Position numbers and translations under genes: made by a program. Below the pieces are notes generated by a model. It worked only from the letters and a program-made list of their open reading frames with translations, searched no databases and was not told where the DNA came from. From Arenibacter algicola (GTDB lineage Bacteria > Bacteroidota > Bacteroidia > Flavobacteriales > Flavobacteriaceae): a DNA stretch of 32,000 nucleotides. Below, piece by piece: positions 10,542-32,000 of the stretch (position 1 is the stretch's first letter; each line of letters starts with the position of its first letter). The stretch covers positions 1,992,230 through 2,024,229 of the forward strand of contig NZ_JPOO01000003.1 in NCBI RefSeq assembly GCF_000733925.1, in the 5' to 3' direction.

Positions 10542-10566
10542 TTATTATACAATAAGTGCATAATCC

Positions 10567-10574
10567 CAAAAATA
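10567..10574 (-). promoter_or_regulatory. Candidate -7 promoter box TATTTTTG (TAnnTTTG) upstream of the GH140-like gene
   Basis: Plus-strand caaaaata at 10567-10574 reads TATTTTTG on the minus strand, 26 nt upstream of the first ATG (10541). I saw no clear -33 TTTG. Confidence 0.3.
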
Positions 10575-10825
10575 TAAGTCCCCAGTTATTAGAAAAATTT
10601 CGGTACATACTTTTCAATAGGATTGTCCCAGCCAAAAAAACAACACTTTTTAATAGCCTATTTTTAAGTCATTGGTTTACTTGCCACAATCATCCTAAGG
10701 CTAAGGGCATGGGAATTTTAATTTTTCCTGCCGCCATTAAGACCAACCCTTCCCAACTAATTTATTAGTAATTGTTTCCATCACTCAAATAGGCGGGCAA
10801 GTAGTATCTGTGCACTACTCTTAGG

Positions 10826-12943: not shown

Positions 12944-12993
12944 GAGCGGTTTATTTTTCTTGTCCGATTAAAAATGGTTTGGGCAAATTAGCA

Positions 12994-14538: not shown

Positions 14539-14640
14539 CTCTGCTATTTATGGATTTTATAGTAGAAAAAAATACCCCTTTTCATCCTTACCAGCTGGCA
14601 TACATCTATGAATCGGGATAACACAAATTAATAAAAAGAA

Positions 14641-14659
14641 CCCTATGCAAATGATAGGG
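14641..14659 (-). terminator. Weak terminator-like hairpin downstream of the sulfatase at 14699-16189
   Basis: ccctat / ataggg 6-bp stem with a 7-nt loop. On the minus strand it is followed by TTCTTTTTATT. The short stem keeps confidence low. Confidence 0.3.
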
Positions 14660-14698
14660 CCCTTTAAAAACTAAACTAATCTAACTACTAACTATTTT

Positions 14699-16189
14699 TT
14701 ATTCTACACTTAAATAGGTACCTTGATCAAAAGTAAACACTTCGGAAGGTGTCCTAGCTTCCTTAAAAAGCAATTTCATTTCGGCTACTATTTCCGGATA
14801 ATCCTTGGCAATATTGTTCTCTTCTCCCAGATCGGCATCCAGATCATAAAGTTCCATCTGATCTTCGGTCGATTCAAAAACATTATACTTTACAGCTTTC
14901 CAATTGCCTTTTCTAATAGCTTGTCTGCCGCCTTTCTCATGAAACTCCCAATACAAATATTCGTGTTCCTTTTGCTCTTTTTCCTCTCCCAAAAGGGTAG
15001 GCAAAAAGGAAACACCATCTAAAGAAGGAGGTACTTCCATATTTGCAATACCTGCAAATGTTGGAAATATGTCCCAGAATGCAGAAACGTGATCTGTTCT
15101 GGTATTTGGTTTAACATGTCCTGGCCACTTAACTATAAGGGGAACCCGGATTCCTCCTTCATAAAGATCCCGTTTGGTTCCCTTAAATGGACCGTTGCTA
15201 TTAAAATAATCAGGATCGGCACCACCTTCAGTGTGTGGACCGTTGTCCGAGGTAAACATAACTATGGTATTGTCGGCAATGCCCAACTGTTCCAATTTGG
15301 CCATGATCTCCCCAACTTGATTGTCCAATATATGAATCATAGACACAAATGCGGCATGGGTTTCTTTCTGTGATTCGTAAGGACCATTTCTGTATTCCGG
15401 TCCATCATCCACCCCTTCATAAGCTTTTTCTGGAGGAAATTTACCCCTGTATTTTTCCATGATTTCCTCTGGAGCTGCAAGCTCTGCATGTGGTATAATA
15501 GATGCTACATAAAGAAAGAAGGGATTATCCTTATTGAACTCTATAAAATCGAGCGTTTTTTCATGTATTAGTTGTGGTGCATAAATCCCTTTCTTTGTTC
15601 CTGCATTTTCTTCCAGAACTAAAGAGTCCGTATTGGCCCATAGGTGGCGGGGGTAGTAATTATGCCCCAAGCGTTGGCAATTGTATCCAAAAAAAGTATC
15701 GAAACCTTGGTTCAATGGATCCCCTTCCGAACCTGGATATCCTAGCCCCCATTTACCAAAAACTCCAGTGGCATAGCCAGCTTTTTTCATGGCCTCCGCC
15801 AAGGTGTAGGTATTATCGGGTATGGGATACTGCCCCTCTGGTTGTATTTCCTTATTGCCACGTACAAAGGTATGTCCTGTGTGCATACCAGTCAACAATG
15901 CAGATCTAGACGGAGCACATACCGTACTACCGGAATAATGTTCGGTAAAAAGCATTCCTTGCCTGGCTAATTTATCTATGTTGGGTGTTGTAAACTTTTG
16001 CTGTCCATAGGCACTTAAATCCCCATAACCCAAGTCATCGGCCAAGATGTAAATAATATTGGGTTTGGCTACATTTTCCTGAGTGCTGTCTGTTTTGGAG
16101 GCCTCAGTTAGCTGACCTTTGTTTTTGCATGCAAATGCACAGGAAATAAGGAATATAAGTAATCCTAAATGGAGAAATTTTTTAGTCAT
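14699..16189 (-). CDS. Cys-type S1 sulfatase (arylsulfatase A / GalNAc-6-sulfatase-like)
   Basis: 496 aa with a signal/lipoprotein-like N-terminus (LLIFLISCAFAC). NIIYILADDLGYGDLSAYG, CAPSRSALLTGMH and MFTSDNGP motifs. Confidence 0.92.
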   Translation of the reverse strand: MTKKFLHLGLLIFLISCAFACKNKGQLTEASKTDSTQENVAKPNIIYILADDLGYGDLSAYGQQKFTTPNIDKLARQGMLFTEHYSGSTVCAPSRSALLTGMHTGHTFVRGNKEIQPEGQYPIPDNTYTLAEAMKKAGYATGVFGKWGLGYPGSEGDPLNQGFDTFFGYNCQRLGHNYYPRHLWANTDSLVLEENAGTKKGIYAPQLIHEKTLDFIEFNKDNPFFLYVASIIPHAELAAPEEIMEKYRGKFPPEKAYEGVDDGPEYRNGPYESQKETHAAFVSMIHILDNQVGEIMAKLEQLGIADNTIVMFTSDNGPHTEGGADPDYFNSNGPFKGTKRDLYEGGIRVPLIVKWPGHVKPNTRTDHVSAFWDIFPTFAGIANMEVPPSLDGVSFLPTLLGEEKEQKEHEYLYWEFHEKGGRQAIRKGNWKAVKYNVFESTEDQMELYDLDADLGEENNIAKDYPEIVAEMKLLFKEARTPSEVFTFDQGTYLSVE

Positions 16190-16201
16190 GGTGTTATTAT
16201 C

Positions 16202-16240
16202 AATTACATTGGGGCAAGAATACCTAACCCCAAAGTAATT
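16202..16240. promoter_or_regulatory. 13-bp-arm inverted repeat in the divergent sulfatase promoter region
   Basis: AATTACATTGGGG (16202-16214) and CCCCAAAGTAATT (16228-16240) are reverse complements at 12 of 13 positions, with a 13-nt spacer. It lies 13-51 nt upstream of the minus-strand sulfatase ATG and 55 nt upstream of the plus-strand sulfatase ATG. Confidence 0.4.
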
Positions 16241-16294
16241 AAAAATTATGCTACTACCTATGGACTTATTATATTTAACTGGATATAAAGTTAT

Positions 16295-17776
16295 ATGCCA
16301 AATACCTTCCTAAATATGAAGCACTCAATACATCACGCCATTATTGTCGTTTTGGCAATAATCTATTCCATACACTCCTGCAAATCCCCCAAAGAGAACG
16401 AGCCAAACAAGGCTCTTCCCAATATAGTTCTAATAAATGTAGATGATTTGGGCTGGAAGGATTTAGGGTTTATGGGCAGTGAGTATTATGAAACACCCCA
16501 TTTGGACGCTTTGGCAAAAGAAGGTATGGTATTTTACAATGCTTACGCAGGAGCTGCAAATTGCGCCCCCAGCCGCGCCTGCCTCCTATCCGGACTTAAT
16601 ACTCCGCGTCACGGCGTTTATACTGTGAGCCCTTCGGATAGAGGCAATCCAAAGACACGAAAACTTATTCCAATAAAAAACACAGACCACCTAAATGACA
16701 GCATATACACACTCCCCCACATGCTAAAGTCGGCCGGATATATTACCGGAAGTTTCGGGAAATGGCACGTAGGGAACGACCCTAAAGAACAGGGGATAGA
16801 TGTAAATGTTGGCGGAAGTGCCAGAGGAAACCCAGGAAGCGGGGGCTACTTTTCGCCATATAAAATAGATCATATCACCAATGGCCCCGATGGGGAGTAT
16901 TTAACGGACCGCATTACCAAAGAGGCCATCTCTTTTGTAGAAAAATACAAGGACACCACCTTTTTTCTCTACCTCCCCTACTATACCGTACATACCCCAA
17001 TTATGGGGAAAGAGGAACTGATTGAAAAATTTAAGGACAAAAAGGGATCCAATGGACAAAATAGGGCCGATTATGCCGCTATGGTGGCCTCTATGGATGA
17101 AAACGTGGGCAAACTACTTTCCACACTAAAAGCAAACGGACTGGAAAAGAATACTTTGGTAATATTTACCTCGGACAATGGTGGAATCAGGGCCATATCC
17201 GAACAAAACCCCTTACGTGCAGGAAAAGGTTCTTATTATGAAGGAGGAATACGCGTACCTTTACTGATAAAATGGCCTGGAAAAATAGAACCCAATTCCA
17301 GCTCTGCCACCCGTGTAAGTAATCTGGACTTTTACCCCACCCTACAAAATATTGTAAGCCCAGAGAAAAAGGCTCTGCTACTGGACGGAATTGACCTTAA
17401 ACCCATTTTTGAGGACAAAACCCAAGTGGAAAGGGACCTATTCTTTCATTTTCCTATCTACCTTCAGGAATACCAGGGTTTACAGGATGGTAGTCGCGAC
17501 CCATTGTTCCGTACCCGTCCTGGCTCAGTAGTTATTTCGGGTGATTGGAAACTGCATGAATATTTTGAAGACGGCGCGTTGGAACTTTACCATTTAATAG
17601 ATGACCCAAGTGAAGAAAATAATGTTGCCGAACAAAATCCGGATAAAACACAGGAACTCCGTAAGAAATTAATGGAATGGCGTGCCACAACCAATGCCAA
17701 GGTTCCAAGCCAAAGCAATCCAGAATACGATGCCGCTTTTGAACAACAGAAAATCAAAGAAAAAAGTCTGCGATAA
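16295..17776 (+). CDS. Cys-type S1 sulfatase
   Basis: 493 aa. NIVLINVDDLGWKDLGFMG, CAPSRACLLSGLNTPRHG and IFTSDNGG motifs. An alternative start at M8 (16316) gives the signal MKHSIHHAIIVVLAIIYSIHSC. Confidence 0.92.
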   Translation: MPNTFLNMKHSIHHAIIVVLAIIYSIHSCKSPKENEPNKALPNIVLINVDDLGWKDLGFMGSEYYETPHLDALAKEGMVFYNAYAGAANCAPSRACLLSGLNTPRHGVYTVSPSDRGNPKTRKLIPIKNTDHLNDSIYTLPHMLKSAGYITGSFGKWHVGNDPKEQGIDVNVGGSARGNPGSGGYFSPYKIDHITNGPDGEYLTDRITKEAISFVEKYKDTTFFLYLPYYTVHTPIMGKEELIEKFKDKKGSNGQNRADYAAMVASMDENVGKLLSTLKANGLEKNTLVIFTSDNGGIRAISEQNPLRAGKGSYYEGGIRVPLLIKWPGKIEPNSSSATRVSNLDFYPTLQNIVSPEKKALLLDGIDLKPIFEDKTQVERDLFFHFPIYLQEYQGLQDGSRDPLFRTRPGSVVISGDWKLHEYFEDGALELYHLIDDPSEENNVAEQNPDKTQELRKKLMEWRATTNAKVPSQSNPEYDAAFEQQKIKEKSLR

Positions 17777-17853: not shown

Positions 17854-18318
17854 ATGCCAACCTACCACCTCAACGTCAACAGTTCCCGAAAAATGGTCGA
17901 GACGGAAGCCGACACCCCTTTACTATATGTCCTACGAGACTATCTGGAACTTAATGGTCCAAAATTTGGTTGTGGACTTGCACAATGTGGGTCGTGCAAA
18001 ATCCTCGTGAACGGAAAGTCCACCAACAGCTGTATGATTCCAATATCCTCTATTGGGGATGCTGAAATAATCACCTTGGAAGGACTTACTACCAATAAAG
18101 GTAAGCTACATGCCGTGCAGCAGGCTTTTGTGGACGAGCAGGCTGCCCAATGCGGTTATTGCCTCAATGGTATGGTGATGACCGCGGTTGGACTTTTAAA
18201 TTCCAACTCAAACCCAGATGAGATGGAAATCAAAACTGCACTGCAGGGTAACCTCTGTCGCTGCGGAACCCATACTAGGATCATCCGAGCTATTAAGACC
18301 GCAGCCAAAAGCCTATAA
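17854..18318 (+). CDS. [2Fe-2S]-binding small subunit of a xanthine-dehydrogenase/aldehyde-oxidase-family molybdoenzyme (IorA-like)
   Basis: 154 aa. Plant-type cluster CGLAQCGSCKILVNG...C, plus a second cluster QCGYCLNGMVM ... NLCRCGTHTRI. No signal peptide. Lies 12 nt upstream of the large-subunit gene. Confidence 0.88.
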   Translation: MPTYHLNVNSSRKMVETEADTPLLYVLRDYLELNGPKFGCGLAQCGSCKILVNGKSTNSCMIPISSIGDAEIITLEGLTTNKGKLHAVQQAFVDEQAAQCGYCLNGMVMTAVGLLNSNSNPDEMEIKTALQGNLCRCGTHTRIIRAIKTAAKSL

Positions 18319-18330
18319 TTTAAATCTGCC

Positions 18331-20553
18331 ATGACAGCAATACCACTTACAACCAGAAGAAAATTTATCAAAGACTTGGGCTATATCAGCGTGGGATTTA
18401 CATTGTTTGGAGCCTGCTCGGGTGTGGAAGACCCCATAATGGCCGCCCGACTAGATTATGATGGGAAACTACCAGGCAGCATGGGCCGTGCCAAAACCGT
18501 AAACGCCTGGTTGGAATTATTGGAGGATGGCACTATTAGGGTACTATCTGGAAAAGTAGAATTGGGACAGGGCATCCGCACTGCTATCCAGCAGGTGGCT
18601 GCCGAAGAACTGGATATGGATCTGGAGAAGGTACAAATTCATCTGGCAGAGACTGGTGTCACCCCTAATGAGGGCTATACCGGTGCCAGCGCTTCCATTC
18701 AGAACAGTGCCATGTCTGTTCGCTATGCAGCAGCTACAGCTAGACAGGAATTATTGCTCTTGGCGAGTAAAAAACTGAATACTGCTGTTGATAATCTATT
18801 GCTTTACAACGGCCTAGTTAAATCTAAACAAAACAAAGAATCCTTGACTTTTGCCGAGATACTTGATGGCGAACAGATAGAAAAAGAAGTAATGCTTCCA
18901 ATTCCCATAAAAGACAACAGGGAACATCGCTATGTTGGCAAAGCCATACCAAGACCAGATATAGAAGAAATGGTAAGGGGGCAGTCGACCTACATTCAAG
19001 ACCTACGCTTCCCCGGTATGGTGCATGCCAGAGTAGTGAGACCTCCGGGATATACTTCCCAACTGATTTCTTTGGATGACACCGGTTTAAAATCAGAAGT
19101 TTCAGGAATCATTAAAACGGTAAGAAAAGGAAGTTTTGTGGGCGTAATTACCGAAAGGGAATACCAAGCTGTAAAGGCAGAACAATATCTGAAGGACCAC
19201 TCGATATGGACGGCCCCCATACCCTTCCCTAAATCTGAAAATCTCTACGCACATATTAAATTGATTGCCTCCAGCCCGGAAACAGTGAAAAACGAAGGTG
19301 ATGTGGCAGCAGCATTTGAAGGCAATGAAACCCTTAAAGCAACATATACCAAACCCTATATTAAACACGCCTCTATGGGCCCCGCCTGTGGAATAGCGAT
19401 GTTTGACGGTGAAATATTGCATATCTGGTCCCACAGTCAAGGAATATATCCCATGAGGGAAGCCCTGGCGACCATGTTGAATATGGAACCCGATAAAATT
19501 CATATTACGAGTGTCCCTGGAGCGGGGTGTTTTGGCCATAGCACTGCCGATGATGCCGCCGCCGATGCAGCACTATTGGCCCTGCAACAACCCAACACCC
19601 ATGTTAGGGTACAATGGTCCAGACATGATGAGCACTTGTGGGATCCCTATGGTCCGGCCATGATCACCGAATTGGAAGCCAGTCTGGATAAAAACAATAA
19701 AATAAACTCGTGGAAAACCGAGGTGTGGACCGACTCCCATAGCACACGCCCGAACAAGGATGCCGGAACGGTATTGGCCGCCAGGTATTTGGAAAACCCA
19801 TACCAGATGAAGTCGAGAGGGTATTTGGGAGGAGGACATAGAAATGCCGATCCATATTACGGCATTCCCAATATTACCGTGAATGCACACTACTATGATG
19901 GACCCTTTCGCACATCCTCTTTGCGTAGCCTAGGATCGTTTACCAATATTTTTGCCATAGAATCGTTTATGGACACTTTGGCCGAAAAGGCGGGCCAAGA
20001 CCCCTTGGAATTCCGACTAAACCACTTGGAAGATAAAAGGGCCATAGGAGTAATCCAAAAAGTGCAAGCCCTTACCAGCGCACAAAATAACGAGGATGGC
20101 AAAGGGATTGGGTATGCCTTTATGAGGTATAAAAATACGGACGCCTATATTGCCGTTGCGGCCAAGGTTACGGTGGATAAAAATAACGGTAATGTGGGTC
20201 TTATTAAAATGTGGGCAGCTGTAGACGTAGGGGAGGTAATCAATATGGATGGACTCACCAATCAAATTGAAGGCGGGATGATCCAAGCAGCCAGCTGGAC
20301 CCTAAAAGAGGAGGTAACGTTCAATACAACAGAAATAACTAGTACAGATTGGATAAAATATCCCATTCTAAAATTTTCTGAAGTCCCTGAAGTGGAGGTG
20401 GCCATTATAAACCGTCCAAGCGAAGACGCCAAAGGTGCCGGGGAAGTCCCCGTTCCGCCAACGGCTGCGGCAATAGCCAATGCCATCTATAATGCCTCTG
20501 CCATACGTATTTATGATCTACCGATAACGCCAGAGAAAATTTTGAAATCCTAA
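18331..20553 (+). CDS. Molybdopterin-binding large subunit (IorB-like / membrane-bound aldehyde dehydrogenase-like) with Tat signal and lipobox
   Basis: 740 aa. The N-terminus TTRRKFIKDLGYISVGFTLFGAC combines a twin-arginine motif with an FGAC lipobox. Its size and its pairing with the 2Fe-2S subunit fit the IorAB two-subunit class. Internal motifs include GQGIRTAIQQVAAEEL and GAGEVPVPPTAAAIANAI. Confidence 0.82.
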   Translation: MTAIPLTTRRKFIKDLGYISVGFTLFGACSGVEDPIMAARLDYDGKLPGSMGRAKTVNAWLELLEDGTIRVLSGKVELGQGIRTAIQQVAAEELDMDLEKVQIHLAETGVTPNEGYTGASASIQNSAMSVRYAAATARQELLLLASKKLNTAVDNLLLYNGLVKSKQNKESLTFAEILDGEQIEKEVMLPIPIKDNREHRYVGKAIPRPDIEEMVRGQSTYIQDLRFPGMVHARVVRPPGYTSQLISLDDTGLKSEVSGIIKTVRKGSFVGVITEREYQAVKAEQYLKDHSIWTAPIPFPKSENLYAHIKLIASSPETVKNEGDVAAAFEGNETLKATYTKPYIKHASMGPACGIAMFDGEILHIWSHSQGIYPMREALATMLNMEPDKIHITSVPGAGCFGHSTADDAAADAALLALQQPNTHVRVQWSRHDEHLWDPYGPAMITELEASLDKNNKINSWKTEVWTDSHSTRPNKDAGTVLAARYLENPYQMKSRGYLGGGHRNADPYYGIPNITVNAHYYDGPFRTSSLRSLGSFTNIFAIESFMDTLAEKAGQDPLEFRLNHLEDKRAIGVIQKVQALTSAQNNEDGKGIGYAFMRYKNTDAYIAVAAKVTVDKNNGNVGLIKMWAAVDVGEVINMDGLTNQIEGGMIQAASWTLKEEVTFNTTEITSTDWIKYPILKFSEVPEVEVAIINRPSEDAKGAGEVPVPPTAAAIANAIYNASAIRIYDLPITPEKILKS

Positions 20554-20820: not shown

Positions 20821-22587
20821 TTAGTTTATTTCATAACCGTATTTATAATCTATAACAATATCATCGGCATATAATTTACCGTCTTTTTCCTTAACTTTTG
20901 CGGATGCCGGTATCATAACCAATAAACGCGAGGACTCCCCTTCAATATTAAAAGTAAAATCGAATTTCGTCTTTTGGGAAATAAACTTACGCTCAACAGC
21001 ATCGTAAATCTTTAAATCTTTGTCTCCAATTGAGATGATGACCTCTTTACTTTCCGCATTGGGATTGTAATATAAATAACTTGGGTATGCTTCTTCACGA
21101 TAAAAATCGGTAGCCAATAAATCCAATTGAAGTATATTTTCAATATTGGTTTTGGAAATAATAGCCCCGGCAACACCCACATGACCACTACCGTAAACAC
21201 TGAATTGGGAAACTTTCGGATTGTCCTTATTCCATTTCATTCCATCACCAATAGCTACTGGTGCCGCTATATCCAAATACAACCCCTCTTCTTCATAATG
21301 CGAACTTTTTATAAGGCCTTCATAAGCAATTACGCCTTTAGTGTGTTCTTTCTCTTCAGGTATCGTTTGATGGTCATCCGGTATTTCGTATGGGTAAAAC
21401 AACCTAGAAGCATTTGCGGCATTTAGCATCCATTTACCGATGGTATTGGCGTACCGTTGATCATAACGCACCAAAGGAACCAGTGGCCACATAGCGTCAT
21501 AGGTATTCATTAAAAAAGCAAAACCTCCATTATGGGTTGTACTGCCCACTAGCCCGGAAACGTCATATCCATTCCAATTATCCACAAGTACACCCCAACC
21601 CTCCCGGCAAGCGGAATTGCCATCAAAGGTCCAATCCAAAACTTCTGAAAAATCATAATTGGTCCCTTGCTCCGCATTCATTCTAGCGGCAACATAAGCC
21701 CCAAAAGGCATCAAAATTTCATAGAAATAGTTTTCCTTCTGATTTAAAAGTGCTTCCAAGGATGATTTGGCCCCCTCCAAATATTTTGGATCATTAAATT
21801 TTTGGTAAGCTGAATAAAGTACAAAGGCATGACCCGCCGCCGCATCTTGCTGAGTACATATCCATGTCTTATTGGGTTGCATGGTAGCATAATCAAAAAA
21901 GGAATAATCGTAGTTACCGTTTAGTACGGAGTCCGCTTCATAAAACTTATCTGCCACTGACTTTAATATGGTATCGTATTCAGTTGCCTGTGGATAAAGA
22001 TCGGCAACGGCATAGAACATAACATTTGGATAAACATCATACCACCAATCCCTGGCATAGCCACCACCAAGCTGAGCCACTTCGGGTCCGGTATTGTTCA
22101 TCATTATGTTCCAATTGGTTTCACTATTGTAGTAGTTCTTTAACATCCTTAAATAGTTTTCACCGTTTTGGTTGGTCTTGTCAATGCCCACCAAGCTTGC
22201 CCCTAGTACAGACCCAATACTTGCAAGCGATTCGTGAAAAATACCGTCATAATGTTCCTGGCCCTGTCTAACATCGCCCATAGCAGTATAAATCCCGTAG
22301 GTTTCTTGGTCAAAATTTTTTCTAGAATTATCCTTCCAAACTAAAGGCCAATATTCCCCTGTTTGATTTTCATCGTATACCTTTTTGTCATAATCTTTTG
22401 CCAAGCTGTTAAAATCCAAAATTTTGAAGGGCTTTGGCAGGTTAGGCATGGAATCGATCCTTAGAACACCAACCTGGGCTATCGGATTGGGAACCTCAAA
22501 CAGATCGGCTTTACTTGCATTTTTACATGAATTAAGTCCAAGAGTTAAAGTTAATAAAAGGACTATATAACGATTAAATATTTTCAT
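20821..22587 (-). CDS. Lipoprotein of unknown family; aromatic-rich body plus C-terminal beta-sandwich-like tail (candidate glycan-active enzyme)
   Basis: 588 aa. Lipoprotein signal LTLTLGLNSC. I recognise no family signature. The body is rich in W/Y/F (GGGYARDWWYDVYPNVMFYAVADLYP, REGWGVLVDNWNGYDVSG). The tail (EVIISIGDKDLKIYDA...SRLLVMIPASAKV) looks like a beta-sandwich. The start overlaps the MFS stop by 14 nt. Confidence 0.85.
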   Translation of the reverse strand: MKIFNRYIVLLLTLTLGLNSCKNASKADLFEVPNPIAQVGVLRIDSMPNLPKPFKILDFNSLAKDYDKKVYDENQTGEYWPLVWKDNSRKNFDQETYGIYTAMGDVRQGQEHYDGIFHESLASIGSVLGASLVGIDKTNQNGENYLRMLKNYYNSETNWNIMMNNTGPEVAQLGGGYARDWWYDVYPNVMFYAVADLYPQATEYDTILKSVADKFYEADSVLNGNYDYSFFDYATMQPNKTWICTQQDAAAGHAFVLYSAYQKFNDPKYLEGAKSSLEALLNQKENYFYEILMPFGAYVAARMNAEQGTNYDFSEVLDWTFDGNSACREGWGVLVDNWNGYDVSGLVGSTTHNGGFAFLMNTYDAMWPLVPLVRYDQRYANTIGKWMLNAANASRLFYPYEIPDDHQTIPEEKEHTKGVIAYEGLIKSSHYEEEGLYLDIAAPVAIGDGMKWNKDNPKVSQFSVYGSGHVGVAGAIISKTNIENILQLDLLATDFYREEAYPSYLYYNPNAESKEVIISIGDKDLKIYDAVERKFISQKTKFDFTFNIEGESSRLLVMIPASAKVKEKDGKLYADDIVIDYKYGYEIN

Positions 22588-23815
22588 TTTCTAGTTTATT
22601 TTGTTGCGTTAATAATTGTTTTGCAATTACTATGGCCAATAGTTGCAATGTCCCTATTATTAATAGAGCATATCGTAAAGCGATATCGGCATCACCAAAA
22701 AATGCGATACCTAGGAATGTACCAGCTCCTATAAGCCTGCCCACGTACAATCCAAATTCATGATTTAGTATATAGGCAAATTCGTTTCTGTTCTCCAGTT
22801 CGGAAAGTAAATCAATAACTTTAAGTTGAATTGGAAAATAGGCTATATCCAAAATAGGTCTAGCGATCAAAAGTAGAAATATAAAAATGATCACTCCAAT
22901 GGAACTAAACAATAAGGCATTGAACAAGGAAGCCAAAAAGAAACATATTAGACCAAAACTAAAAATAATGTGGCGGTGCTTTGGCTTGGATAATTTCCCT
23001 AAAATAAGCATTATAATGGCTGCTATTATTGCTCCTATGGATTGGGCCGTGCCCAATGCCCCTTCCGATGCAAAAAATTTCATCATTAAAATGGCTGGGG
23101 CCGTAACTATAAAACCCTGGGCCAACCCTTTTAACAAGGCCATTTGGAGCATTTTATTCCAAAGTTTATGAAACTTGAAATACAGGAACTTCTCGTTCTT
23201 CGGCTTTTCGTAGGTTCCAAAATGAAAAATAATTGAAGCAATAATGGTAAAAATAAAGACAGCAACCGTTACAACCTTATATCCTGAATTTACCCCTTCA
23301 TTAGTACTACCATTGCCAGTCATTAGATACCATCCTATAACAATAGGTACCAAAACTGCGGTGGTGGTATAAAAGAACGTGTCAAGTCCATAATAAAAAT
23401 TTCTAGTTCTATCCGATGTAGTCGCAAGTACTAGATAATCCCTATTGGACCAATAAAGACCAAAAGACATCCCCATTATAAGTCCAGCCGAAACCAATCC
23501 TGAATAAGAAATCTCTTTTAGCGACATCATAAAAACCATGGATACCCCGCTTAGCAACATCCCCAAAGAAAATAATCTTTTAATGTTTACACGGTTAAGT
23601 AAATACCCGTTAATATAAAAAGTAATGGGTATACCCGTATATATGGCCAATTGATACAACATCACCTTTGATGGATCATTGGAGTTCCTCATGATGTAGG
23701 ATGCCACAAAAATATCTATAACAGGCATAACAAATGCATAGACCAAATTTGTTAGGATCAATATTTTAGCACTCCTTGAAAAATCCTTTATTCCAATTTT
23801 AGCAACAACTCCCAT
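22574..23815 (-). CDS. MFS-type permease (probable oligosaccharide importer)
   Basis: 413 aa, hydrophobic throughout with about 12 predicted helices, and no signal peptide. Its start ATG shares one base with the GH130 stop (TAATG). Confidence 0.8.
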   Translation of the reverse strand: MGVVAKIGIKDFSRSAKILILTNLVYAFVMPVIDIFVASYIMRNSNDPSKVMLYQLAIYTGIPITFYINGYLLNRVNIKRLFSLGMLLSGVSMVFMMSLKEISYSGLVSAGLIMGMSFGLYWSNRDYLVLATTSDRTRNFYYGLDTFFYTTTAVLVPIVIGWYLMTGNGSTNEGVNSGYKVVTVAVFIFTIIASIIFHFGTYEKPKNEKFLYFKFHKLWNKMLQMALLKGLAQGFIVTAPAILMMKFFASEGALGTAQSIGAIIAAIIMLILGKLSKPKHRHIIFSFGLICFFLASLFNALLFSSIGVIIFIFLLLIARPILDIAYFPIQLKVIDLLSELENRNEFAYILNHEFGLYVGRLIGAGTFLGIAFFGDADIALRYALLIIGTLQLLAIVIAKQLLTQQNKLENENI

Positions 23816-24864
23816 TATTTCTTAAGTGATTTTAGTATTGATTCGATAGAAAGAGTTGCCAGGCATACGTGTTCATCCGAAGCTCCGTAGTAAACACTTA
23901 TTTCGTCCCCATTCACCAAATGGCCGTTGGTAAAAACTACATTGCCAAAAAAACCTGTTTTTTCATACTCGGCCAATGGTTCCATTATAGGTTCCTCAGA
24001 CCTTGCAATTACAATTGAGGGATCCTTTAAATCCAGCAACAAAGCCCCCAAACAATATCTATTTTTTTCCGTTGCCCCATGATAGATAGCCAACCACCCA
24101 TCTTTGGTTTTAATAGGTGAGGCTCCAGCCCCTAGCCTTTTGCTATCAAATTTGGAGGTTCTGGTTTTGGAAATGCATTTGTGATTTCCCCAATGAATAC
24201 CATCAGGCGATTCAGCTATCCAAATATAATTACCGCCCAATTCCGGACTACTAGGCCTATGCAGCGCATAGAACTTATTATTAATTTTTTCTTCAAAAAT
24301 GGTACAGTCCTTATTGTGCGGACTAAATATCATGCCTTTCTTATCAAAATCCTTCCAATCCCTGGTAGTTCTCAACCCTACACCCACCCCATTGGGGCTG
24401 ACCATGGTATATGTCAGGTAATAGACCCCATCAACTTTTGAAACCCTACAGTCTTCAATACCATAACTTTCGTATTCCCCTTCACCGAACAGTGCCGGAT
24501 ATTCCTCCAGCTCTGAGAATGTTATTCCATCATCGCTAAAAAGTAATCTAAGATGGGAAATGGTAGTTAGGTAATCCACTCCGTCATAATTGATGACCCT
24601 GGCATCTGAAGCATCCAACTTGGGGTCATCCAGCTTAAAATCCAAAATTTCTACCTTTCCAAAATCGTTATAAAAAGGGACGGATATTAGACCGTCTTTT
24701 TTGACAGTTCTTTCGGCAACACGAACTAGTAGTCCAATTTTTCCATTAAATTCGAATGTCCCCGGATTAAGCAAACATTCAATAAGCATATTCTTATTGC
24801 TTGGCTTTAAATCTTTGGGCGACAATAATGGATTTTCACTATATCTATTTGCAATATCTGTCAT
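23815..24864 (-). CDS. GH130-family glycoside phosphorylase/hydrolase (beta-mannoside-type), cytoplasmic
   Basis: 349 aa with no signal peptide. The N-terminus NPLLSPKDL...LLNPGTFEFNGKIGLLVRVAE, the catalytic-region GIEDCRVSKVDGVYYLTYT, LHRP, and GAGASPIKTKDGWLAIYHGA match my memory of GH130 (DUF377) proteins. Confidence 0.8.
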   Translation of the reverse strand: MTDIANRYSENPLLSPKDLKPSNKNMLIECLLNPGTFEFNGKIGLLVRVAERTVKKDGLISVPFYNDFGKVEILDFKLDDPKLDASDARVINYDGVDYLTTISHLRLLFSDDGITFSELEEYPALFGEGEYESYGIEDCRVSKVDGVYYLTYTMVSPNGVGVGLRTTRDWKDFDKKGMIFSPHNKDCTIFEEKINNKFYALHRPSSPELGGNYIWIAESPDGIHWGNHKCISKTRTSKFDSKRLGAGASPIKTKDGWLAIYHGATEKNRYCLGALLLDLKDPSIVIARSEEPIMEPLAEYEKTGFFGNVVFTNGHLVNGDEISVYYGASDEHVCLATLSIESILKSLKK

Positions 24865-24987: not shown

Positions 24988-26472
24988 TTAATAACCTGGG
25001 TTCTGGGTAATTGTTCCTCCAGACTTATCAATATCCCTTTGTGGTATTGGGAATAAATAATTATAGTCTTGGAAATTTCTCCCCAAATCGGATAATACGG
25101 TTTTTGCCGTTCCCCATCTTTTTAAATCATTGAACCTATGGGATTCAAAACCTAGCTCCACTCTTCTTTCAGACATTATCCATCCTAAAATTTCGACTGC
25201 ATTTGTTGACGCAGGTCTATCTGTTAATGTACCTAGAGGTACTATAGAACCGTCTGCAGTAGCGCTGTTCCTAGCCCTAGTTCTAATTTGGTTTATAATG
25301 TCGACCGCTCCTACATAATCCCCTGTTTCATTGAGTGCTTCTGCTTTCCATAGCAGGACATCGGCGTAGCGGATATAGACTTTATTGCCATAATCTATCA
25401 TATCTGTGGTAGATCCTATTATCTTGAAAGAACGTTTATCGTCAGGATTGGCAGTAGTGGTATATAGCAATCTTGGGTCATTTGCTTCAAAGGCCGCCAC
25501 AAAATCATCCGTTGGTGCAAAAAATCCCCAACCAATAACAAATCTCAATCCATTAGTATTGTTAGGCGTTTCGTCTGAACGATGATCGTAGGCAAAAATC
25601 ACTTCATTGTCAGCGAATTCCATTTCGGCGTTAAAACTATCAAAATAATTAGCATTAAGACTGTAATTTCCAAGGGCATCCAATTCCGCAATCGTGCTTA
25701 GCACCGAGGACCAATTCTCATTAAATAATGCAACTTTTGCCTGCAATGCAATTATGGCTCCTTTGGAAACTCTCCATGGTTCTGCCGGATCGGGGTACTT
25801 GGCGTTGGTTGCCAATGATTTTGCCAGGGCAATATCGGAGTTCACCTGGTTCATAACCTCTTCTTTTGGTGCTCTAATGGCTACGGCCAAGGCTTCCTCA
25901 AAAGAATCTGGAGTTGCACTAATTAAAGGTACATCGCCAAAATTATTCACTAAATCAAAATAGTAGTAGGCCCTTAAAAAATGTGCTTCTGACAAAAGTT
26001 GATTTTTTCGGGCATCGGTCATGCCTGCCGATTGGACGGTAGCCGCATCGGATAAAAACCCTATTGCCAAATTGGCCCTGTTTATTCCAATATAGTCATA
26101 AACCCAAATTCCGTTAAAAGCTTGGTTTTCCGGTGTAAAAGTGTAGTTGCCCACTTCATCCATCCAGGGCTGATCTCCATCCGGATTCCATTTTTTATTC
26201 ATGTCATTGGATGCGATATCCTGCAATACAATGTCATTTCTAAATACGGTCCCCAAATCCCATCTCCAACCTGGAATAACACCGTTCAGAGTGTTTTTTA
26301 AAGGTTGGTATATTGAGCTTACCGAAGCTTCAAGGGTCACCAAAGCCAAGTCATTGTCCACGATGTCCTCCGTTAGTAGCCCAATTGGCTCTTTTTCCAA
26401 TTCATCCATACAACCCACTGCAAGTGATGATATGAAAAGGACAATTAGTATTCTGTTAAATATATTTTTCAT
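24988..26472 (-). CDS. SusD/RagB-family outer-membrane glycan-binding lipoprotein
   Basis: 494 aa. Lipoprotein signal SSLAVGC followed by MDELEKE. RRVELGFESHRFNDLKRW ... TQNPGY C-terminus. Lies 18 nt downstream of susC-2. Confidence 0.93.
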   Translation of the reverse strand: MKNIFNRILIVLFISSLAVGCMDELEKEPIGLLTEDIVDNDLALVTLEASVSSIYQPLKNTLNGVIPGWRWDLGTVFRNDIVLQDIASNDMNKKWNPDGDQPWMDEVGNYTFTPENQAFNGIWVYDYIGINRANLAIGFLSDAATVQSAGMTDARKNQLLSEAHFLRAYYYFDLVNNFGDVPLISATPDSFEEALAVAIRAPKEEVMNQVNSDIALAKSLATNAKYPDPAEPWRVSKGAIIALQAKVALFNENWSSVLSTIAELDALGNYSLNANYFDSFNAEMEFADNEVIFAYDHRSDETPNNTNGLRFVIGWGFFAPTDDFVAAFEANDPRLLYTTTANPDDKRSFKIIGSTTDMIDYGNKVYIRYADVLLWKAEALNETGDYVGAVDIINQIRTRARNSATADGSIVPLGTLTDRPASTNAVEILGWIMSERRVELGFESHRFNDLKRWGTAKTVLSDLGRNFQDYNYLFPIPQRDIDKSGGTITQNPGY

Positions 26473-26490: not shown

Positions 26491-29400
26491 TTAAAATTTA
26501 ACGTTTACACCAAACATGAAGGATGTAGAAAGTGGGTAGGTACCCTTATCTACTAAATCCGATGCTTCGGGATCCAAACCTGTATAATTGGTAGAGGTAA
26601 GGAGATTTCTACCGGATATATAAAGTCGTGCGCTGTCAAACCCTTGAACGCCATCTATGGTATAGCCAATTTCAATATTTTTCAAACGGAAATAGGATGC
26701 GTCTTCAACAAAAATACTTGAGACCTTGCTACTACCATTATCCTCAAAAGCAACCCTTGGAATACTATTGGTGCTGCCTTCTCCGTCCCAAGCCCCTAAA
26801 ATAGCCGCGGTGTAATTAAAAGGCCTTGTATCAAAATCTATGATCTTTTTCCCGTCATTATACCTGTCAATACCCTCTACTCCCTGAAAAAGCATGGACA
26901 TGTCAAATCCTTTGTATTCTCCTGTTAGGAAGATACCATAGGTAAGATCCGGGATAGAGGATCCTATAAATTCGCGATCAAAATCCGGACTTATTTTCCC
27001 ATCCCCATTAATATCCTTGAACCTAATGTCCCCTGGTTTGGAATTCCCTTCCAAAAATAAATGACTATCTATTTCTGCCTGATTCTGGTAAATCCCTTCC
27101 ATTCTATATCCGTAATAAGCATCCAAAGGCTGACCAACTACCGTTCTGGATTCGTTATTGACTATATTGGGCACATTTGGATGCAATTTTTCAACATTAT
27201 TTGTTACTGTTGAAAGGTTAGCGTTGATATTATATTTAAACTCTCGTTCTGAATTTCTAAAATTGACTGAAAATTCAAATCCCTTATTGCTCACCTCACC
27301 GGCATTGACTATGGTTGGCTGCAAATCGCCAAGGAAACCAGGTAAGCCTATAGGTAACAATATGTCCGTTGTGCTTTTGTCAAAATATTCCGCTGTAACA
27401 CCGACTTTGTTATTAAAAAGACCCAAGTCGATTCCAAAGTTGGCCTGAGTGGTAGTTTCCCATTTTAGATCGGGATTACCATAGCGTACTTTTCTAACAA
27501 TGCCTTCCGTTTGTTCTATTAATTCAGCGTAAGTGTAATTGTCTATATTTTGATTCCCCAGTTGACCCCAACTAGCTCTTAATTTTAAATCGGACAGCCA
27601 ATCTACTTCGCTTAAAAAATCCTCCCTTGATAGTGTCCAACCTCCAGAAACCGATGGAAAATATCCCCATCGATTATTTTCGGCAAACCTTGATGAGGCA
27701 TCCGCTCTTAAATTGGCGGTTATCATGTATTTATTGTCATAGGAATATGTAGTAGACCCAAAATAGGAGAACAGAGCAGATTCAGTACCTGCACCTGCGT
27801 TATTTTCGTCCAAGCCTTCACCTCCATAGGACAAATATCTAAACTCGTCTATGGAATATGGGAAACGCGCCCTGCTGGCAACGATGTCCGACTCTGTCTG
27901 TGTAACATATTCGGTACCGACCATAGCACTGAAGTCGTGTTTTTCACCGAACGACTTATTGTAATTTAAGGTATTACTAAAAGTTAGGGCCAAAGATTCC
28001 CCTCTTCTTTCACTTAGATTATTGGGCCTGTTCCTTCTTCCCAATCCTTGATCTATTGCACTTCCACCACCATCATCATCTCCGTAATTCTCATTAAATG
28101 TTTTGTCATGAAAAAAGGTAAGGTCTACCCCTACATTGGATCTAAAGGTTAATTCTTTATCCTTTAAAAAAGAATACTGACCATATATGTTGCCGAAAGT
28201 TTTGAATATTCTGGTCTGGTCATCTGAAAAATAAGCTTGCGCAATGGGATTTCCGACCATTTCGTACATAGTTCTGTTCAATCCTTGATCATAACCGGTA
28301 GCTGTAAAGAAAGGCATATCGGTAAAAGGATCTCTTTCGGAATAGGTTGGATCATTTACATCTTTAAAAACGGGTATTACGGGAGCCCTTAACAGCGCAA
28401 ATCGTATTAAACTTTCTCCTGTAGAAGGAACTTTGTCCTGGGTTGATGAAGACAATTGAACATTGGTCCCAATCTTTAATCTATCCGTTAGGTCGGCGTT
28501 GATATTAGATCTAAAATTCAATCTTCGGAATTTGTCATTATCATAAACCACTATACCATTTTCCCCATAGTATCCCAAGGATGTCAAAAATTGAACATTT
28601 TCACTACCTCCGCTGGCAGACAACTGTAGGTTTTGGGAACTTCCTCCCTCGAAGAGTTCATCCAGCCAATCGGTATCACCAAAATCTGCCCTGCCCCTAT
28701 CCGCAGTATATGGATTTGCTCCGGTATATGTATTGTTCCAAGCTTTCTCAGTAGTGTTTATATATTGTTCGGCATTGAGCATGGTAGGTAAGTTTGAAGC
28801 GGATTGAACACCATACCAGTACTCGGCCTCAAGCTTCATTTTTCCTGCTGAACCACTTTTAGTGGTAATCAGGACAACACCAGCAGATGCCCTTGAACCG
28901 TAGATGGATGCAGCCGCAGCATCTTTTAAAACCGACATGGTTTTTATATCGGACTGGTTCAAAAAGGTAATATCCCGAGACGGTACCCCATCCACAATAT
29001 ATAATGGATCGTTATTTCCAATAGTACCTACTCCACGGATACGAACTTGAATCCCACCACCTGGGGCTCCGCTACTGGAGGCAACCTGTACCCCAGCAAC
29101 TTGCCCCTGTAATGCTTGGGCAACATTGGAGGTTCTGGCTTTGTTCAAATCATCCACATCCACTACGGAAATTGCCCCGGTTAAAGTAGATTTCTTTAAA
29201 GTGGAATACCCTACAAGAACAACTTCATCCAAAGCATTTGCATCTACGGACATGGTAACATTAATTTGGGTTTGTCCATTGACCGGAATCGCCTGGGTCT
29301 TATAGCCTATATAGCTAAACAACAATACCGCATTGGTATCCACATTCGAAATGGTGTAATTGCCGTCAAAATCTGTAGAAGTTCCTATGGAGGTTCCTTC

Positions 29401-29535
29401 TATAATTACGTTTACCCCTGGCAGGGGACCTTCATCATCCGAGACGACGCCGGTAATGTTTTGTGCCAGCAGGGAGCTTCCAAAAAGAATGGCTCCGAGA
29501 AAAGTTAGCTTACTAATACAATTTTTCATCATCAT
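26491..29535 (-). CDS. SusC/RagA-family TonB-dependent outer-membrane transporter (no STN extension)
   Basis: 1014 aa. A signal peptide is followed by a carboxypeptidase-regulatory-like domain (ITGVVSDDEGPLPGVNVIIEGTSIGTSTDFDGNYTI). Plug motif LKDAAAASIYGSRASAGVVLITTK. The barrel ends FMFGVNVKF. Confidence 0.93.
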   Translation of the reverse strand: MMMKNCISKLTFLGAILFGSSLLAQNITGVVSDDEGPLPGVNVIIEGTSIGTSTDFDGNYTISNVDTNAVLLFSYIGYKTQAIPVNGQTQINVTMSVDANALDEVVLVGYSTLKKSTLTGAISVVDVDDLNKARTSNVAQALQGQVAGVQVASSSGAPGGGIQVRIRGVGTIGNNDPLYIVDGVPSRDITFLNQSDIKTMSVLKDAAAASIYGSRASAGVVLITTKSGSAGKMKLEAEYWYGVQSASNLPTMLNAEQYINTTEKAWNNTYTGANPYTADRGRADFGDTDWLDELFEGGSSQNLQLSASGGSENVQFLTSLGYYGENGIVVYDNDKFRRLNFRSNINADLTDRLKIGTNVQLSSSTQDKVPSTGESLIRFALLRAPVIPVFKDVNDPTYSERDPFTDMPFFTATGYDQGLNRTMYEMVGNPIAQAYFSDDQTRIFKTFGNIYGQYSFLKDKELTFRSNVGVDLTFFHDKTFNENYGDDDGGGSAIDQGLGRRNRPNNLSERRGESLALTFSNTLNYNKSFGEKHDFSAMVGTEYVTQTESDIVASRARFPYSIDEFRYLSYGGEGLDENNAGAGTESALFSYFGSTTYSYDNKYMITANLRADASSRFAENNRWGYFPSVSGGWTLSREDFLSEVDWLSDLKLRASWGQLGNQNIDNYTYAELIEQTEGIVRKVRYGNPDLKWETTTQANFGIDLGLFNNKVGVTAEYFDKSTTDILLPIGLPGFLGDLQPTIVNAGEVSNKGFEFSVNFRNSEREFKYNINANLSTVTNNVEKLHPNVPNIVNNESRTVVGQPLDAYYGYRMEGIYQNQAEIDSHLFLEGNSKPGDIRFKDINGDGKISPDFDREFIGSSIPDLTYGIFLTGEYKGFDMSMLFQGVEGIDRYNDGKKIIDFDTRPFNYTAAILGAWDGEGSTNSIPRVAFEDNGSSKVSSIFVEDASYFRLKNIEIGYTIDGVQGFDSARLYISGRNLLTSTNYTGLDPEASDLVDKGTYPLSTSFMFGVNVKF

Positions 29536-29739: not shown

Positions 29740-32000
29740 CTACAAACTAGACATAGCCTTAAGCTGATAATTTTTTGGAGTGATACTATACATTTTCTTA
29801 AATTCCCTATAAAAATAGGAACGGTTGTTGAACCCGGATTGATAGCAAACCTCCGAGACCGTAAGTGTATTTTTTCTCAAGAGCGCCGCCGCATGTTTTA
29901 ATCTTACGGTTCGTATAAGGTCCCCGGGAGAAAAGCCGTATATATATTTAATTTTTCTATAGAGCTGTGAACTACTAATTCCTAATTCTTTCTCTATGAA
30001 CAAACTTTGAAGGTTTTCATTTTCTATATTGTTATGAATAATTTTCAAAACCTTTTTCATGAAGTCCTTATGTTCATCATGCTCTAAAACATTCGTAAAG
30101 CTATCCATTGGTGTTTCCTTGGATAGATATTTTAGCATCACCTCCTTTTCTTCCAGGAGATTTTGAACTTTCACCTGCAAATAATCTGGATGAAAGGGTT
30201 TGGGAATATATGAATTTGCTCCACTTTCCAATCCTTCAATACTATGAATGACAGAATTTTTGGATGTAAGCATAATAAAAGGAATATGACATGTAAGGTT
30301 GTTGTTCCTTATTTTTTTACATAATTCCATTCCATCCATTTCCGGCATCATAAGGTCACTTATAATCAGATCTGGCATTTCCTTTTTCATTAATTCCAAA
30401 GCCTCGGCCCCATTATTGGCTGTTAGAACATTATATTTATCTATCAATAGTTCTTTTAAAAATACCCTTACATCTTTTTCGTCCTCAACAATCAAAACAA
30501 TTTTACGTTTATTTTGAAGAACATCAAGTGATGTTAATTTATTTGAAATATCTTCAGAATTGCCAGATCCATCTTCCAAAATGTTTTTTAGGTGATAGGA
30601 TATATTTACCTGCCCGGAATGCTCTTCCAATTCAGTATCCTTAAAGCTCCCCTTGTTACAGGGAAGCAAAACCTTAAATGAGGTCTCTTTCTTGACTTCG
30701 CTCGTAACCGTAATCTCACCTTTCAAAACTGTCACCAAACTTTTTACATATGCCAATCCTATCCCAGTCCTAAACTTATCGGTATCCGTATCCTTACTCT
30801 CATCCAACAATACAAATCTTGTAAATACGCGCTCCAATTTTTCTTTGGCAATACCCTCTCCAGAATTGGATACTATAATATTAAGAATATCGTAATCGTC
30901 CTCAATAAATAACTTTAGATTAATATTTCCATTTTCTGGAGTATATTTAAAGGCATTGGACAAAAGGTTAAATACGATCTTCTCAATTTTATCCTTGTCG
31001 AACCACCCCTGCAATAAGGATGGCATTTCCAATTCGTATTCAATATTTTTCTGAATGGCCCATTCATCAAATAATTCGGCAATTTGCTCTATTAAATTCA
31101 CTAGATCGAATTGCTTTACTCGCACCTCCACATAATTGCTTTCCGCTTTTCTAAATTCGAGTAATTGTTGTGTTAAAAAGAGTAATCTAGATGAGTTCCT
31201 TTCTATCATATTTATAAACCTCTGGTTCTTTTCACTTAAACCCACCATTTCTGATAGTTTTTGAACAGGTCCGGTAATCAAAGTCAAAGGAGTTTGGAAT
31301 TCGTGTGCTACATTGGTAAAGAAAGTAAGACGGTTTTGATGAATTTCTTCTTCTCTTTTTTGATTGATAATATTTTGTTTTAAAGATTGTTTTTTTTGAT
31401 AGTAACTGTAAATCAAAACAAGCAATAGAAGGAAAAGTAGCAAATAGACAGCGTATGCCACATTTGTTCGCCAAATAATGGGATCGATCTTAATATCTAT
31501 TGCTTTTGTGGGATTGCTCCAAATACCATCGCTATTGGTCCATTTTAACAATAGTGAATATTTACCAGGTGGTACATTCGTAAAGGAAATATTTCTTCGG
31601 TTGTTGATGTACACCCATTCGTTGTCAAAACCTATAAGCTGATAGGCATATGTGCATTTTTCACTGTGAATAAAGGTTAGGGCTGCAATGTCAATGTCGA
31701 AATAATTCTCATCGTGCTCCAAATTAATAGATGGAAAGCTGTTGCCGTTTGGGGAGACCACCAGATTTTGATAGTATGGCTCCTTCATATTTTGACCACT
31801 TATTTTATCAATAAGAATATCGGGAACAAACGGATCTTCTTCTATTTCCGAAGGCAAAAAATAGTTAAATCCTTTAATTCCCCCCATAAATACGTAATCA
31901 GAGTCGGCACCTTTATAAAAGGCTCCATCCGCAAACTCATTGTTTTGTAAACCCTCATTTTCGGTAAAATTGATAAATCTGGATTCATCGACTACAAAAT
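29740..32000 (-). CDS. Hybrid two-component system regulator (periplasmic propeller/Y_Y_Y sensor, TM, HisKA, HATPase, REC, AraC-type HTH); N-terminus beyond the window
   Basis: The track ORF starts at M (31887), but I checked that the frame stays open to base 32000 (...FVVDESRFINFTENEGLQNNEFADGAFYKGADSDYVFMGG...), which is propeller-repeat-like. Downstream I see a Y_Y_Y-like region (YAYQLIGFDNEWVY...PPGKYSLLLKWTN) and a TM helix. These are followed by the H-box NVAHEFQTPLTLI, an ATPase region, and REC (LIVEDEKDVRVFL...ISDLMMPEMDG). An AraC HTH lies at the C-terminus (VSEVCYQSGFNNRSYFYREFKKMY). Confidence 0.92.
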   Translation of the reverse strand, partial: FVVDESRFINFTENEGLQNNEFADGAFYKGADSDYVFMGGIKGFNYFLPSEIEEDPFVPDILIDKISGQNMKEPYYQNLVVSPNGNSFPSINLEHDENYFDIDIAALTFIHSEKCTYAYQLIGFDNEWVYINNRRNISFTNVPPGKYSLLLKWTNSDGIWSNPTKAIDIKIDPIIWRTNVAYAVYLLLFLLLLVLIYSYYQKKQSLKQNIINQKREEEIHQNRLTFFTNVAHEFQTPLTLITGPVQKLSEMVGLSEKNQRFINMIERNSSRLLFLTQQLLEFRKAESNYVEVRVKQFDLVNLIEQIAELFDEWAIQKNIEYELEMPSLLQGWFDKDKIEKIVFNLLSNAFKYTPENGNINLKLFIEDDYDILNIIVSNSGEGIAKEKLERVFTRFVLLDESKDTDTDKFRTGIGLAYVKSLVTVLKGEITVTSEVKKETSFKVLLPCNKGSFKDTELEEHSGQVNISYHLKNILEDGSGNSEDISNKLTSLDVLQNKRKIVLIVEDEKDVRVFLKELLIDKYNVLTANNGAEALELMKKEMPDLIISDLMMPEMDGMELCKKIRNNNLTCHIPFIMLTSKNSVIHSIEGLESGANSYIPKPFHPDYLQVKVQNLLEEKEVMLKYLSKETPMDSFTNVLEHDEHKDFMKKVLKIIHNNIENENLQSLFIEKELGISSSQLYRKIKYIYGFSPGDLIRTVRLKHAAALLRKNTLTVSEVCYQSGFNNRSYFYREFKKMYSITPKNYQLKAMSSL

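Follow-up and report, generated by a model that had tools for sequence, protein, structure and literature searches.

In a 32,000-nucleotide stretch of the Arenibacter algicola genome (contig NZ_JPOO01000003.1, positions 1,992,230 to 2,024,229; hereafter the window), the last gene of a polysaccharide utilization locus (PUL) encodes a 588-residue lipoprotein, which we call X588. Its family is widespread, uncharacterised, exported, enzyme-like and functionally coupled to beta-1,2-mannoside phosphorolysis, and X588 is the best candidate for an extracytoplasmic enzyme that cleaves chains of beta-1,2-linked mannose. We propose, at about an even chance of being right, that X588 is a periplasmic glycoside hydrolase of an undescribed family, trimming imported beta-1,2-mannosides to the disaccharide for the MFS permease and the GH130 phosphorylase encoded next to it.

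The X588 gene and its operon

X588 is encoded on the minus strand of the window, from an ATG at 22587 to a stop codon at 20821-20823 (coding sequence 20821..22587, 588 residues plus stop), and is the last gene of the operon. An earlier note, made from the letters alone, had described it as a 588-residue lipoprotein of no recognisable family at the end of a GH130-MFS operon, and the reading frame, the lipoprotein signal and the position in the operon are all as described, except that the note had not given the strand. It is not a chance reading frame: among the candidates scored, homologues form more than 4,200 clusters at the 90% identity level (1,035 at 50%), and metagenome matches reach 100% identity. 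The N-terminus, MKIFNRYIVLLLTLTLGLNSC, reads as a lipoprotein signal peptide (22525..22587, minus strand) with the lipobox LNSC and Cys21 as the lipidated residue; X588 has three cysteines, including this lipid anchor. A cysteine stands at the lipidation site in the marine orthologues, and a signal of the type I signal peptidase kind (ATA|Q) is found in Flavobacterium. Because no consistent acidic surface-export motif follows the lipid cysteine in the orthologues, and because those of Flavobacterium have ordinary signal peptides, X588 is most probably a lipid-anchored protein of the periplasm. The composition had also been called aromatic-rich. The content of W+Y+F (14.3%, with Tyr at 8.0%) is indeed the highest among the proteins of the window, but the margin is modest.

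The operon runs in the order HTCS-SusC-SusD-GH130-MFS-X588, all on the minus strand, and every neighbour of X588 is identified by strong Pfam scores, in the role that had been read for it before. The genes are a hybrid two-component sensor/regulator (HTCS; 29740..32000, truncated where the window stops; Y_Y_Y, HisKA, HATPase_c, Response_reg and HTH_18), a SusC-like TonB-dependent transporter (26491..29535; Plug, TonB_dep_Rec_b-barrel and CarbopepD_reg_2), a SusD-like outer-membrane glycan-binding lipoprotein (24988..26472; SusD_RagB and SusD-like_3), a cytoplasmic GH130 of the GH130_4 type, that is, a beta-1,2-mannobiose/mannoside phosphorylase (23815..24864; Glyco_hydro_130, E 2.5e-49), and an MFS inner-membrane sugar importer (22574..23815; MFS_1, E 1.5e-14). 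The first 14 nt of X588 are also the last 14 nt of the MFS gene, and the MFS start and the GH130 stop share 1 nt; therefore, X588 closes a GH130-MFS-X588 unit that is translationally coupled. It shares a transcription unit with SusC/SusD and the sensor, in an order that recurs across genera, and in this sense is a component of a Bacteroidota PUL. A promoter and terminator scan gave no better result than shuffled sequence.

The sensor was listed as a protein of 715 residues that starts at an ATG inside the gene (31887). The frame stays open as far as base 32000, and the complete homologue in locus L133 (the L numbers denote loci from other genomes and metagenomes) has 1368 residues; thus, the sensor looks short only because the window ends there. 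The same locus is found on a Tara Oceans scaffold (TARA_R110000822, L057) with 99% protein identity over six genes, from HTCS to X588, and in Arenibacter sp. F20364 (L026) with 97-99% protein identity over the five genes there, from SusC to X588.

Partner enzymes of X588

The GH130 of the window scores 500 bits to Uhgb_MS (PDB 9EQQ) and 325 bits to Lin0857. Its alignment to Uhgb_MS is gap-free, with 62% of the residues identical, and P206, N211 and R242 of Uhgb_MS are kept. Both reference enzymes are members of subfamily GH130_4 that phosphorolyse beta-1,2-mannobiose (PMC12814180, PMC8950772). In Paenibacillus, the GH130 scores 515 bits to Lin0857, and the neighbouring DUF1861 protein is similar to MTP1, 2 and 4, the mannogen mannosyltransferase/phosphorylases of Leishmania (E 4e-42 to 2e-36), which belong to family GT108; this family also has bifunctional members in bacteria (PMC10913872). 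In Paenibacillus and an unclassified metagenome-assembled genome (MAG), DUF1861 proteins stand beside GH130_4 and relatives of X588, at L051:4476-5435, L049:7635-8564 and L050:4690-5619. Since DUF1861 matches the GT108 enzymes, both carry a three-enzyme beta-1,2-mannoside module. Thus, all partners of X588 indicate beta-1,2-mannoside catabolism.

Linkage to GH130 across genomes

We gathered 126 loci with 50-99% identity to X588 from genomes and metagenomes, 102 of which had enough upstream DNA. GH130 and MFS lie directly upstream of X588 on the same strand in 95 of these 102, usually with HTCS-SusC-SusD before them; such loci come from Flavobacteriaceae, Prolixibacteraceae and Bacteroidales, and from marine, soil and compost metagenomes. 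Among distant relatives (32-40% identity), a GH130 adjoins in five of eight sampled representatives (L047, L049/L050, L051, L054 and L056), so that the link to GH130 persists at this distance and in other phyla. Four of these five GH130s are GH130_4-like, and that of L054 is a weak match nearer the secreted type. No GH130 was seen for the other three representatives, two of which have contigs of only 2.7 and 6.2 kb, while the third (two contigs, of 10.8 and 22.8 kb) has an unrelated context.

The gene order differs among the distant hosts: AraC / GT108(DUF1861) / MFS / X588 / GH130 in the unclassified MAG, LacI / GT108(DUF1861) / GH130 / ABC importer / X588 (993 residues) in Paenibacillus sp. 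DS2015, and ABC importer / GH130 / X588 (2,467 residues, SLH-anchored) in Cohnella. Two further metagenome contigs have a GH130 beside an X588 relative. The X588-GH130 module is thus present in Paenibacillus, Cohnella and an unclassified MAG, and X588 homologues alone were found in Planctomycetota and Limnochordales. Four orphan copies, 54-87% identical to X588 and in three cases from Arenibacter, are L005:10001-11758, L022:10001-11734, L023:6143-7879 and L127:9767-11641; no GH130, MFS or SusC/SusD lies near these four, although the neighbours in L005, L022 and L127 were not subjected to a family search, and the contexts of these three offered no hint of a function.

Hosts of the family include Flavobacteriaceae, Prolixibacteraceae, Bacteroidales, Paenibacillus, Cohnella, Limnochordales and Planctomycetota. 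Signal peptides are present in most members, which rules out a cytoplasmic phosphorylase. The longer ones (700-2,467 residues) carry F5/8-type-C, Laminin_G_3, Big_3_5, PKD, fn3, SLH, choline-binding or type IX secretion system (T9SS) tail modules, as is typical of secreted enzymes that degrade glycans. Some genomes have a second X588 paralogue of about 1,030 residues and about 35% identity, with PKD, Laminin_G_3 and a T9SS C-terminal sorting domain (L021:4604-7696; L046:4501-7596; L133:17468-20569). The sorting domain suggests a secreted or surface-bound depolymerase that would work with the periplasmic copy.

Family searches and predicted fold

The searches covered Pfam-A (2025), NCBIfam (June 2026), PDB sequences (2026) and PDB folds to April 2026, and no family was assigned in any of them, in line with the earlier note. 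The best Pfam match of X588, and the only model with any signal, is C5-epim_C (PF06662), which stays below threshold (18.6 bits against a cut-off of 23.3). The match spans residues 225-283, a single helical hairpin covering 57 of the 188 model positions, with the pattern 'G.A..Y...GD.KYL..A'. At an E limit of 1, this model recurs in 12 of 36 family members (best E 5.5e-4) and LANC_like in seven of 36 (best E 5.1e-3); nothing further recurs in Pfam. X588 has no NCBIfam match at E<=0.1. In PDB sequences, no match was obtained with the single sequence or with a 36-sequence profile, except for a generic helix hairpin common to LanC-like proteins. The DUF1680/GH127 model matched neither X588 nor its 35 homologues in Pfam at E<=1. 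Homologues are publicly named 'hypothetical protein' or after an appended domain only ('discoidin domain-containing', 'S-layer homology domain-containing'); one bears the name of the D-glucuronyl C5-epimerase C-terminal domain in UniRef.

An AlphaFold2 model was calculated on an alignment of 36 homologues (32-88% identity; model numbering is protein numbering minus 1), with a mean predicted local distance difference test score (pLDDT) of 93.4 and a predicted template modelling score of 0.91. About 12 helices in residues 59-416 are followed by an all-beta domain that begins near residue 477 and takes up the rest of the chain, and the strands assigned by DSSP span model residues 476 to 579. From the model, the conservation and the Foldseek matches, the protein divides into a conserved N-terminal segment with an alpha/alpha barrel (residues 38-476; 21160..22476, minus strand) and a C-terminal beta-sandwich (residues 477-588; 20824..21159, minus strand), the latter with a near-invariant motif around D494, L505, N508 and P509. 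A helical barrel and a beta-strand tail of about 100 residues had been guessed beforehand, and the model bears out both.

At E<=1e-3, Foldseek gave 22 matches in the PDB, every one of them a glycoside hydrolase that combines an (alpha/alpha)6 barrel with a beta-sandwich. The nearest solved folds are those of GH127/GH146 (E 6e-7 to 4e-5, probability 1.0), to which X588 is only remotely similar (template modelling (TM) score 0.31-0.39, identity 9-11%, root-mean-square deviation (rmsd) 14-16 Å). Fungal rhamnosidases, GH116, sugar 2-epimerases and GH76 come next.

Conserved residues and comparison with known enzymes

Conservation was scored over 124 near-full-length members (32-100% identity) aligned to the hidden Markov model of the family. 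Six acidic residues are at least 90% conserved, namely E119 (93%), E290 (93%), E306 (90%), E423 (98%), D448 (94%) and D494 (98%). N304 (98%), Y375 (100%), Y465 (99%) and N508 (100%) stand out as well, R302 and R395 are also conserved, and no histidine or cysteine is conserved among the 124 members. Between genera, X588 is about 75% identical. In the model, E119, W182/Y183, D248, Y289/E290 and Y375/D376 are placed at, or immediately ahead of, the N-termini of alternate helices, which is the usual active-site end of (alpha/alpha)6 barrels. These residues would thus sit at the active-site end of the predicted barrel.

The GH127/GH146 beta-L-arabinofuranosidases (HypBA1, BT0349 and Bll3HypBA1; clan GH-P) are exported and glycan-active, with an (alpha/alpha)6 barrel followed by a beta-sandwich as predicted for X588; however, they have two beta-sandwiches and X588 has one. 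GH127 enzymes use a cysteine nucleophile held by a Zn-Cys3 site, whereas no cysteine reaches 85% conservation in the X588 family, and a GH127-type cysteine/zinc mechanism is thus ruled out. The enzymes of the AGE superfamily, including cellobiose 2-epimerase, also share the (alpha/alpha)6 barrel, with weak Foldseek matches (E ~2e-3 to 6e-3). Cellobiose 2-epimerase is the genomic partner of a GH130_1 phosphorylase and a sugar importer in beta-1,4-mannan catabolism. AGE-type epimerases are cytoplasmic proteins of about 400 residues with two catalytic histidines and no beta-sandwich; in contrast, X588 is exported, has the extra beta domain and lacks a conserved histidine, so that this mechanism is excluded as well.

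Accessory genes and other features of the window

In 59 of 100 related loci, X588 is followed within 6 kb by the gene of an exported GH13 (L006:11735-13357; L034:11941-13566; L046:11777-13408; many of L058-L136), which is absent from the window. This protein is similar to alpha-glucosidase, oligo-1,6-glucosidase and sucrose isomerase, with E 1e-128 for Pfam Alpha-amylase and 385 bits for PDB 8IBK. An alpha-glucosidase-like gene is unexpected in a beta-1,2-mannoside locus. Two exported proteins with no Pfam or NCBIfam family also recur. One, well conserved and of about 818-822 residues, is found in 23 loci between SusD and GH130 or just behind X588 (L028:4897-7353; L013:11770-14238); the other, a 441-residue lipoprotein, lies between SusD and GH130 in eight loci (L018:6099-7424; also L011, L017, L020, L068, L091, L110 and L111). 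Neither is a paralogue of X588, as the hhalign probabilities are 0.2% and 13%, respectively. In some marine loci, secreted GH130s lie a few kb from X588 and are closest to the model of the BT3780 beta-1,2-mannosidase, at 449 bits against a cut-off of 550 (L006:13362-14558; L016:16227-17399; L070 and L071 at ~16.3-17.5 kb). They adjoin a GH32 in L006, and a GH63-like MGH1-like hydrolase and a LacI regulator in L016.

In the window, the genes for a 2Fe-2S and a molybdopterin-binding subunit of the aldehyde-oxidase/xanthine-dehydrogenase type (17854-20553) are convergent with X588 and separate the two PULs. The same pair stands behind X588 in other Arenibacter loci (L001, L002 and L026). The second PUL, at 2172-17776, consists of SusD and SusC (2172-7102), a FecR-type anti-sigma factor with an ECF sigma factor (7191-9073), a GH140-type 'apiosidase-like' enzyme (9108-10541), a sulfatase fused to a PA14 domain (10826-12943), a GH30 (12994-14538) and two further sulfatases (14699-16189 and 16295-17776); its presumed substrate is a sulfated glycan.

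Discussion

The operon suggests a simple division of labour across the cell envelope. SusC/SusD would import soluble beta-1,2-mannoside oligomers, and X588 would cut them in the periplasm to beta-1,2-mannobiose or very short oligomers, with E119, E290, E306, E423 and D448, at one end of the barrel, as candidate catalytic carboxylates. The co-translated MFS permease would then carry the product of X588 to the cytoplasm, where the GH130_4 phosphorylase would split the disaccharide into mannose and mannose-1-phosphate. In genomes with the second copy of about 1,030 residues, the T9SS-secreted paralogue may act as the surface depolymerase. The earlier note had offered X588 as either the missing depolymerase or a periplasmic trimming enzyme; of the two, the signal features favour trimming, and the surface role fits the T9SS paralogue instead. 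As far as computation goes, the reading of the note is supported, and none of the contrary outcomes that it had named was observed. A similar pathway logic is known for GH144/GH162 (SGL) with GH94, in which an exported (alpha/alpha)6 endo-beta-1,2-glucanase is combined with a transporter and a cytoplasmic sophorooligosaccharide phosphorylase. This is an analogy of role and not of membership: the sugar is glucose and not mannose, GH144/GH162 are absent from the top 50 Foldseek matches, and no sequence similarity to them was found in the PDB searches. Among exported enzymes, to our knowledge, hydrolysis of beta-1,2-mannosidic bonds is known only for the GH130_3 beta-1,2-mannosidases of the BT3780 type, and these five-bladed beta-propeller exo-mannosidases are unrelated to X588 in sequence and structure.

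Several observations weigh against the proposed trimming role. The structural likeness of the predicted model to known hydrolases is at the level of fold class only (TM 0.31-0.39, rmsd 14-16 Å). Seven loci hold orphan X588 copies with no GH130 nearby. A natural source of beta-1,2-mannosides in sea water or soil is not known, and the discoverers of the beta-1,2-mannoside phosphorylases noted that, for their own organism, the substrate had no known source (PMC4264767). The GH13 of 59 of 100 loci and the two recurrent exported proteins mean that the substrate may be a heteroglycan. Finally, as Uhgb_MS also accepts alpha-1,2-mannobiose as an acceptor and caps alpha-1,2-mannooligosaccharides with beta-mannosyl units, the GH130 might act on an alpha-mannoside with a beta cap (PMC8950772).

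These points bear most directly on the nature of the bond. Since the GH13 and the two unassigned exported proteins recur, the bond cut by X588 may not be Man-beta-1,2-Man but, for example, an alpha-linkage, or a link to a residue other than mannose, through which beta-1,2-mannobiose units are joined to a larger heteroglycan or glycoconjugate; X588 would then release the GH130_4 substrate in the same pathway. The capping activity of Uhgb_MS is consistent with such a substrate, as is the fact that the sole phosphorylase of the core operon is of the disaccharide type. However, the operon in the window keeps X588 without the GH13 or any other accessory gene, and no alpha-mannan enzyme of GH92, GH76, GH38 or GH125 is present in the loci examined. 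Moreover, other phyla pair GT108 with GH130_4, as would be expected for the turnover of pure beta-1,2-oligomannan. We therefore regard the cleavage of another bond as unlikely, though serious enough to be kept in mind.

A different question is whether the family is new. X588 may already belong to a recent CAZy family or to a characterised family absent from the libraries searched, as we covered Pfam-A, NCBIfam and the PDB and not dbCAN/CAZy, and open-access papers and preprints and not subscription-only ones; in addition, new GH families often have no Pfam, NCBIfam or PDB entry for years. Against this, the searches up to 2026 returned no match, the sources name the homologues 'hypothetical protein' or by an accessory domain only, and no paper in the open-access literature ties an exported enzyme to GH130_4. 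Within that literature, a full-text search for '2-mannanase' returned only alpha-1,2 enzymes (GH99) and no beta-1,2-mannanase; GH130 combined with beta-1,2-mannan, PUL or new-family terms gave no description of X588 or its locus; no exported beta-1,2-mannan depolymerase was found; and a paper on GH130 diversity has no genomic-context text on GH130_4. On balance, an existing family seems rather improbable.

The fold and the one Pfam similarity also allow another chemistry. The combination of an alpha/alpha toroid and a beta-sandwich occurs in PL8, PL12, PL15, PL17 and PL21 and in D-glucuronyl C5-epimerase, and X588 might act on an acidic glycan as a polysaccharide lyase or in the manner of a uronate C5-epimerase, with a tyrosine as catalytic base/acid. 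The recurrence of C5-epim_C as the only Pfam similarity, the invariant Y375, Y465, N304 and N508, the conserved R302 and R395, and the KduI, KduD-like and aldolase genes a few kb downstream in the Cohnella locus would fit this. Nevertheless, the Pfam match is below the gathering score and consists of a single hairpin that also matches LanC-like proteins; no lyase is among the top 50 Foldseek matches, and no histidine is conserved. The partners of X588 are a phosphorylase of neutral mannosides and a sugar importer, and neither GH88/GH105 nor uronate-pathway genes are found in the core locus. A lyase or epimerase of this kind is thus highly improbable.

About as improbable is that X588 is a non-catalytic glycan-binding lipoprotein, like a surface glycan-binding protein, or an AGE-type epimerase/isomerase preparing the disaccharide for GH130: binding lipoproteins are frequent in PULs, Foldseek lists cellobiose, glucose and mannose 2-epimerases/isomerases with a target-side TM of up to 0.5, and GH130_1 pathways employ a cellobiose 2-epimerase (PMC12871903), but binding proteins are normally beta-sandwiches beside SusD that are not fused to more binding modules as the X588 family is, about 75% identity between genera with invariant polar residues speaks against mere binding, and the export and the lack of a conserved histidine rule out the AGE type, whose enzymes are cytoplasmic with two catalytic histidines.

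The trimming hydrolase thus remains our preferred reading of X588. A stronger version, namely that the family is a new glycoside hydrolase family of the first known beta-1,2-mannanases or beta-1,2-mannobiohydrolases, and that it implies a substantial, unrecognised environmental pool of beta-1,2-mannosides, is put forward here only tentatively, at clearly less than an even chance.

The X588 family is the one unexplained partner of GH130_4 phosphorylases that is exported and enzyme-like, in at least two phyla and in unclassified MAGs, and thousands of variants of the locus are present in marine, soil and compost metagenomes. If the proposed role is true, the family would be a new CAZy family and would provide a tool to make or analyse beta-1,2-mannosides, which are antigens of Candida and Leishmania. 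X588 would also be a marker gene for an unrecognised glycan in the carbon turnover of sea and soil. Should the family indeed consist of the first beta-1,2-mannanases or beta-1,2-mannobiohydrolases, the unrecognised pool may be, for example, mannogen-like storage oligomers of protists or bacteria.

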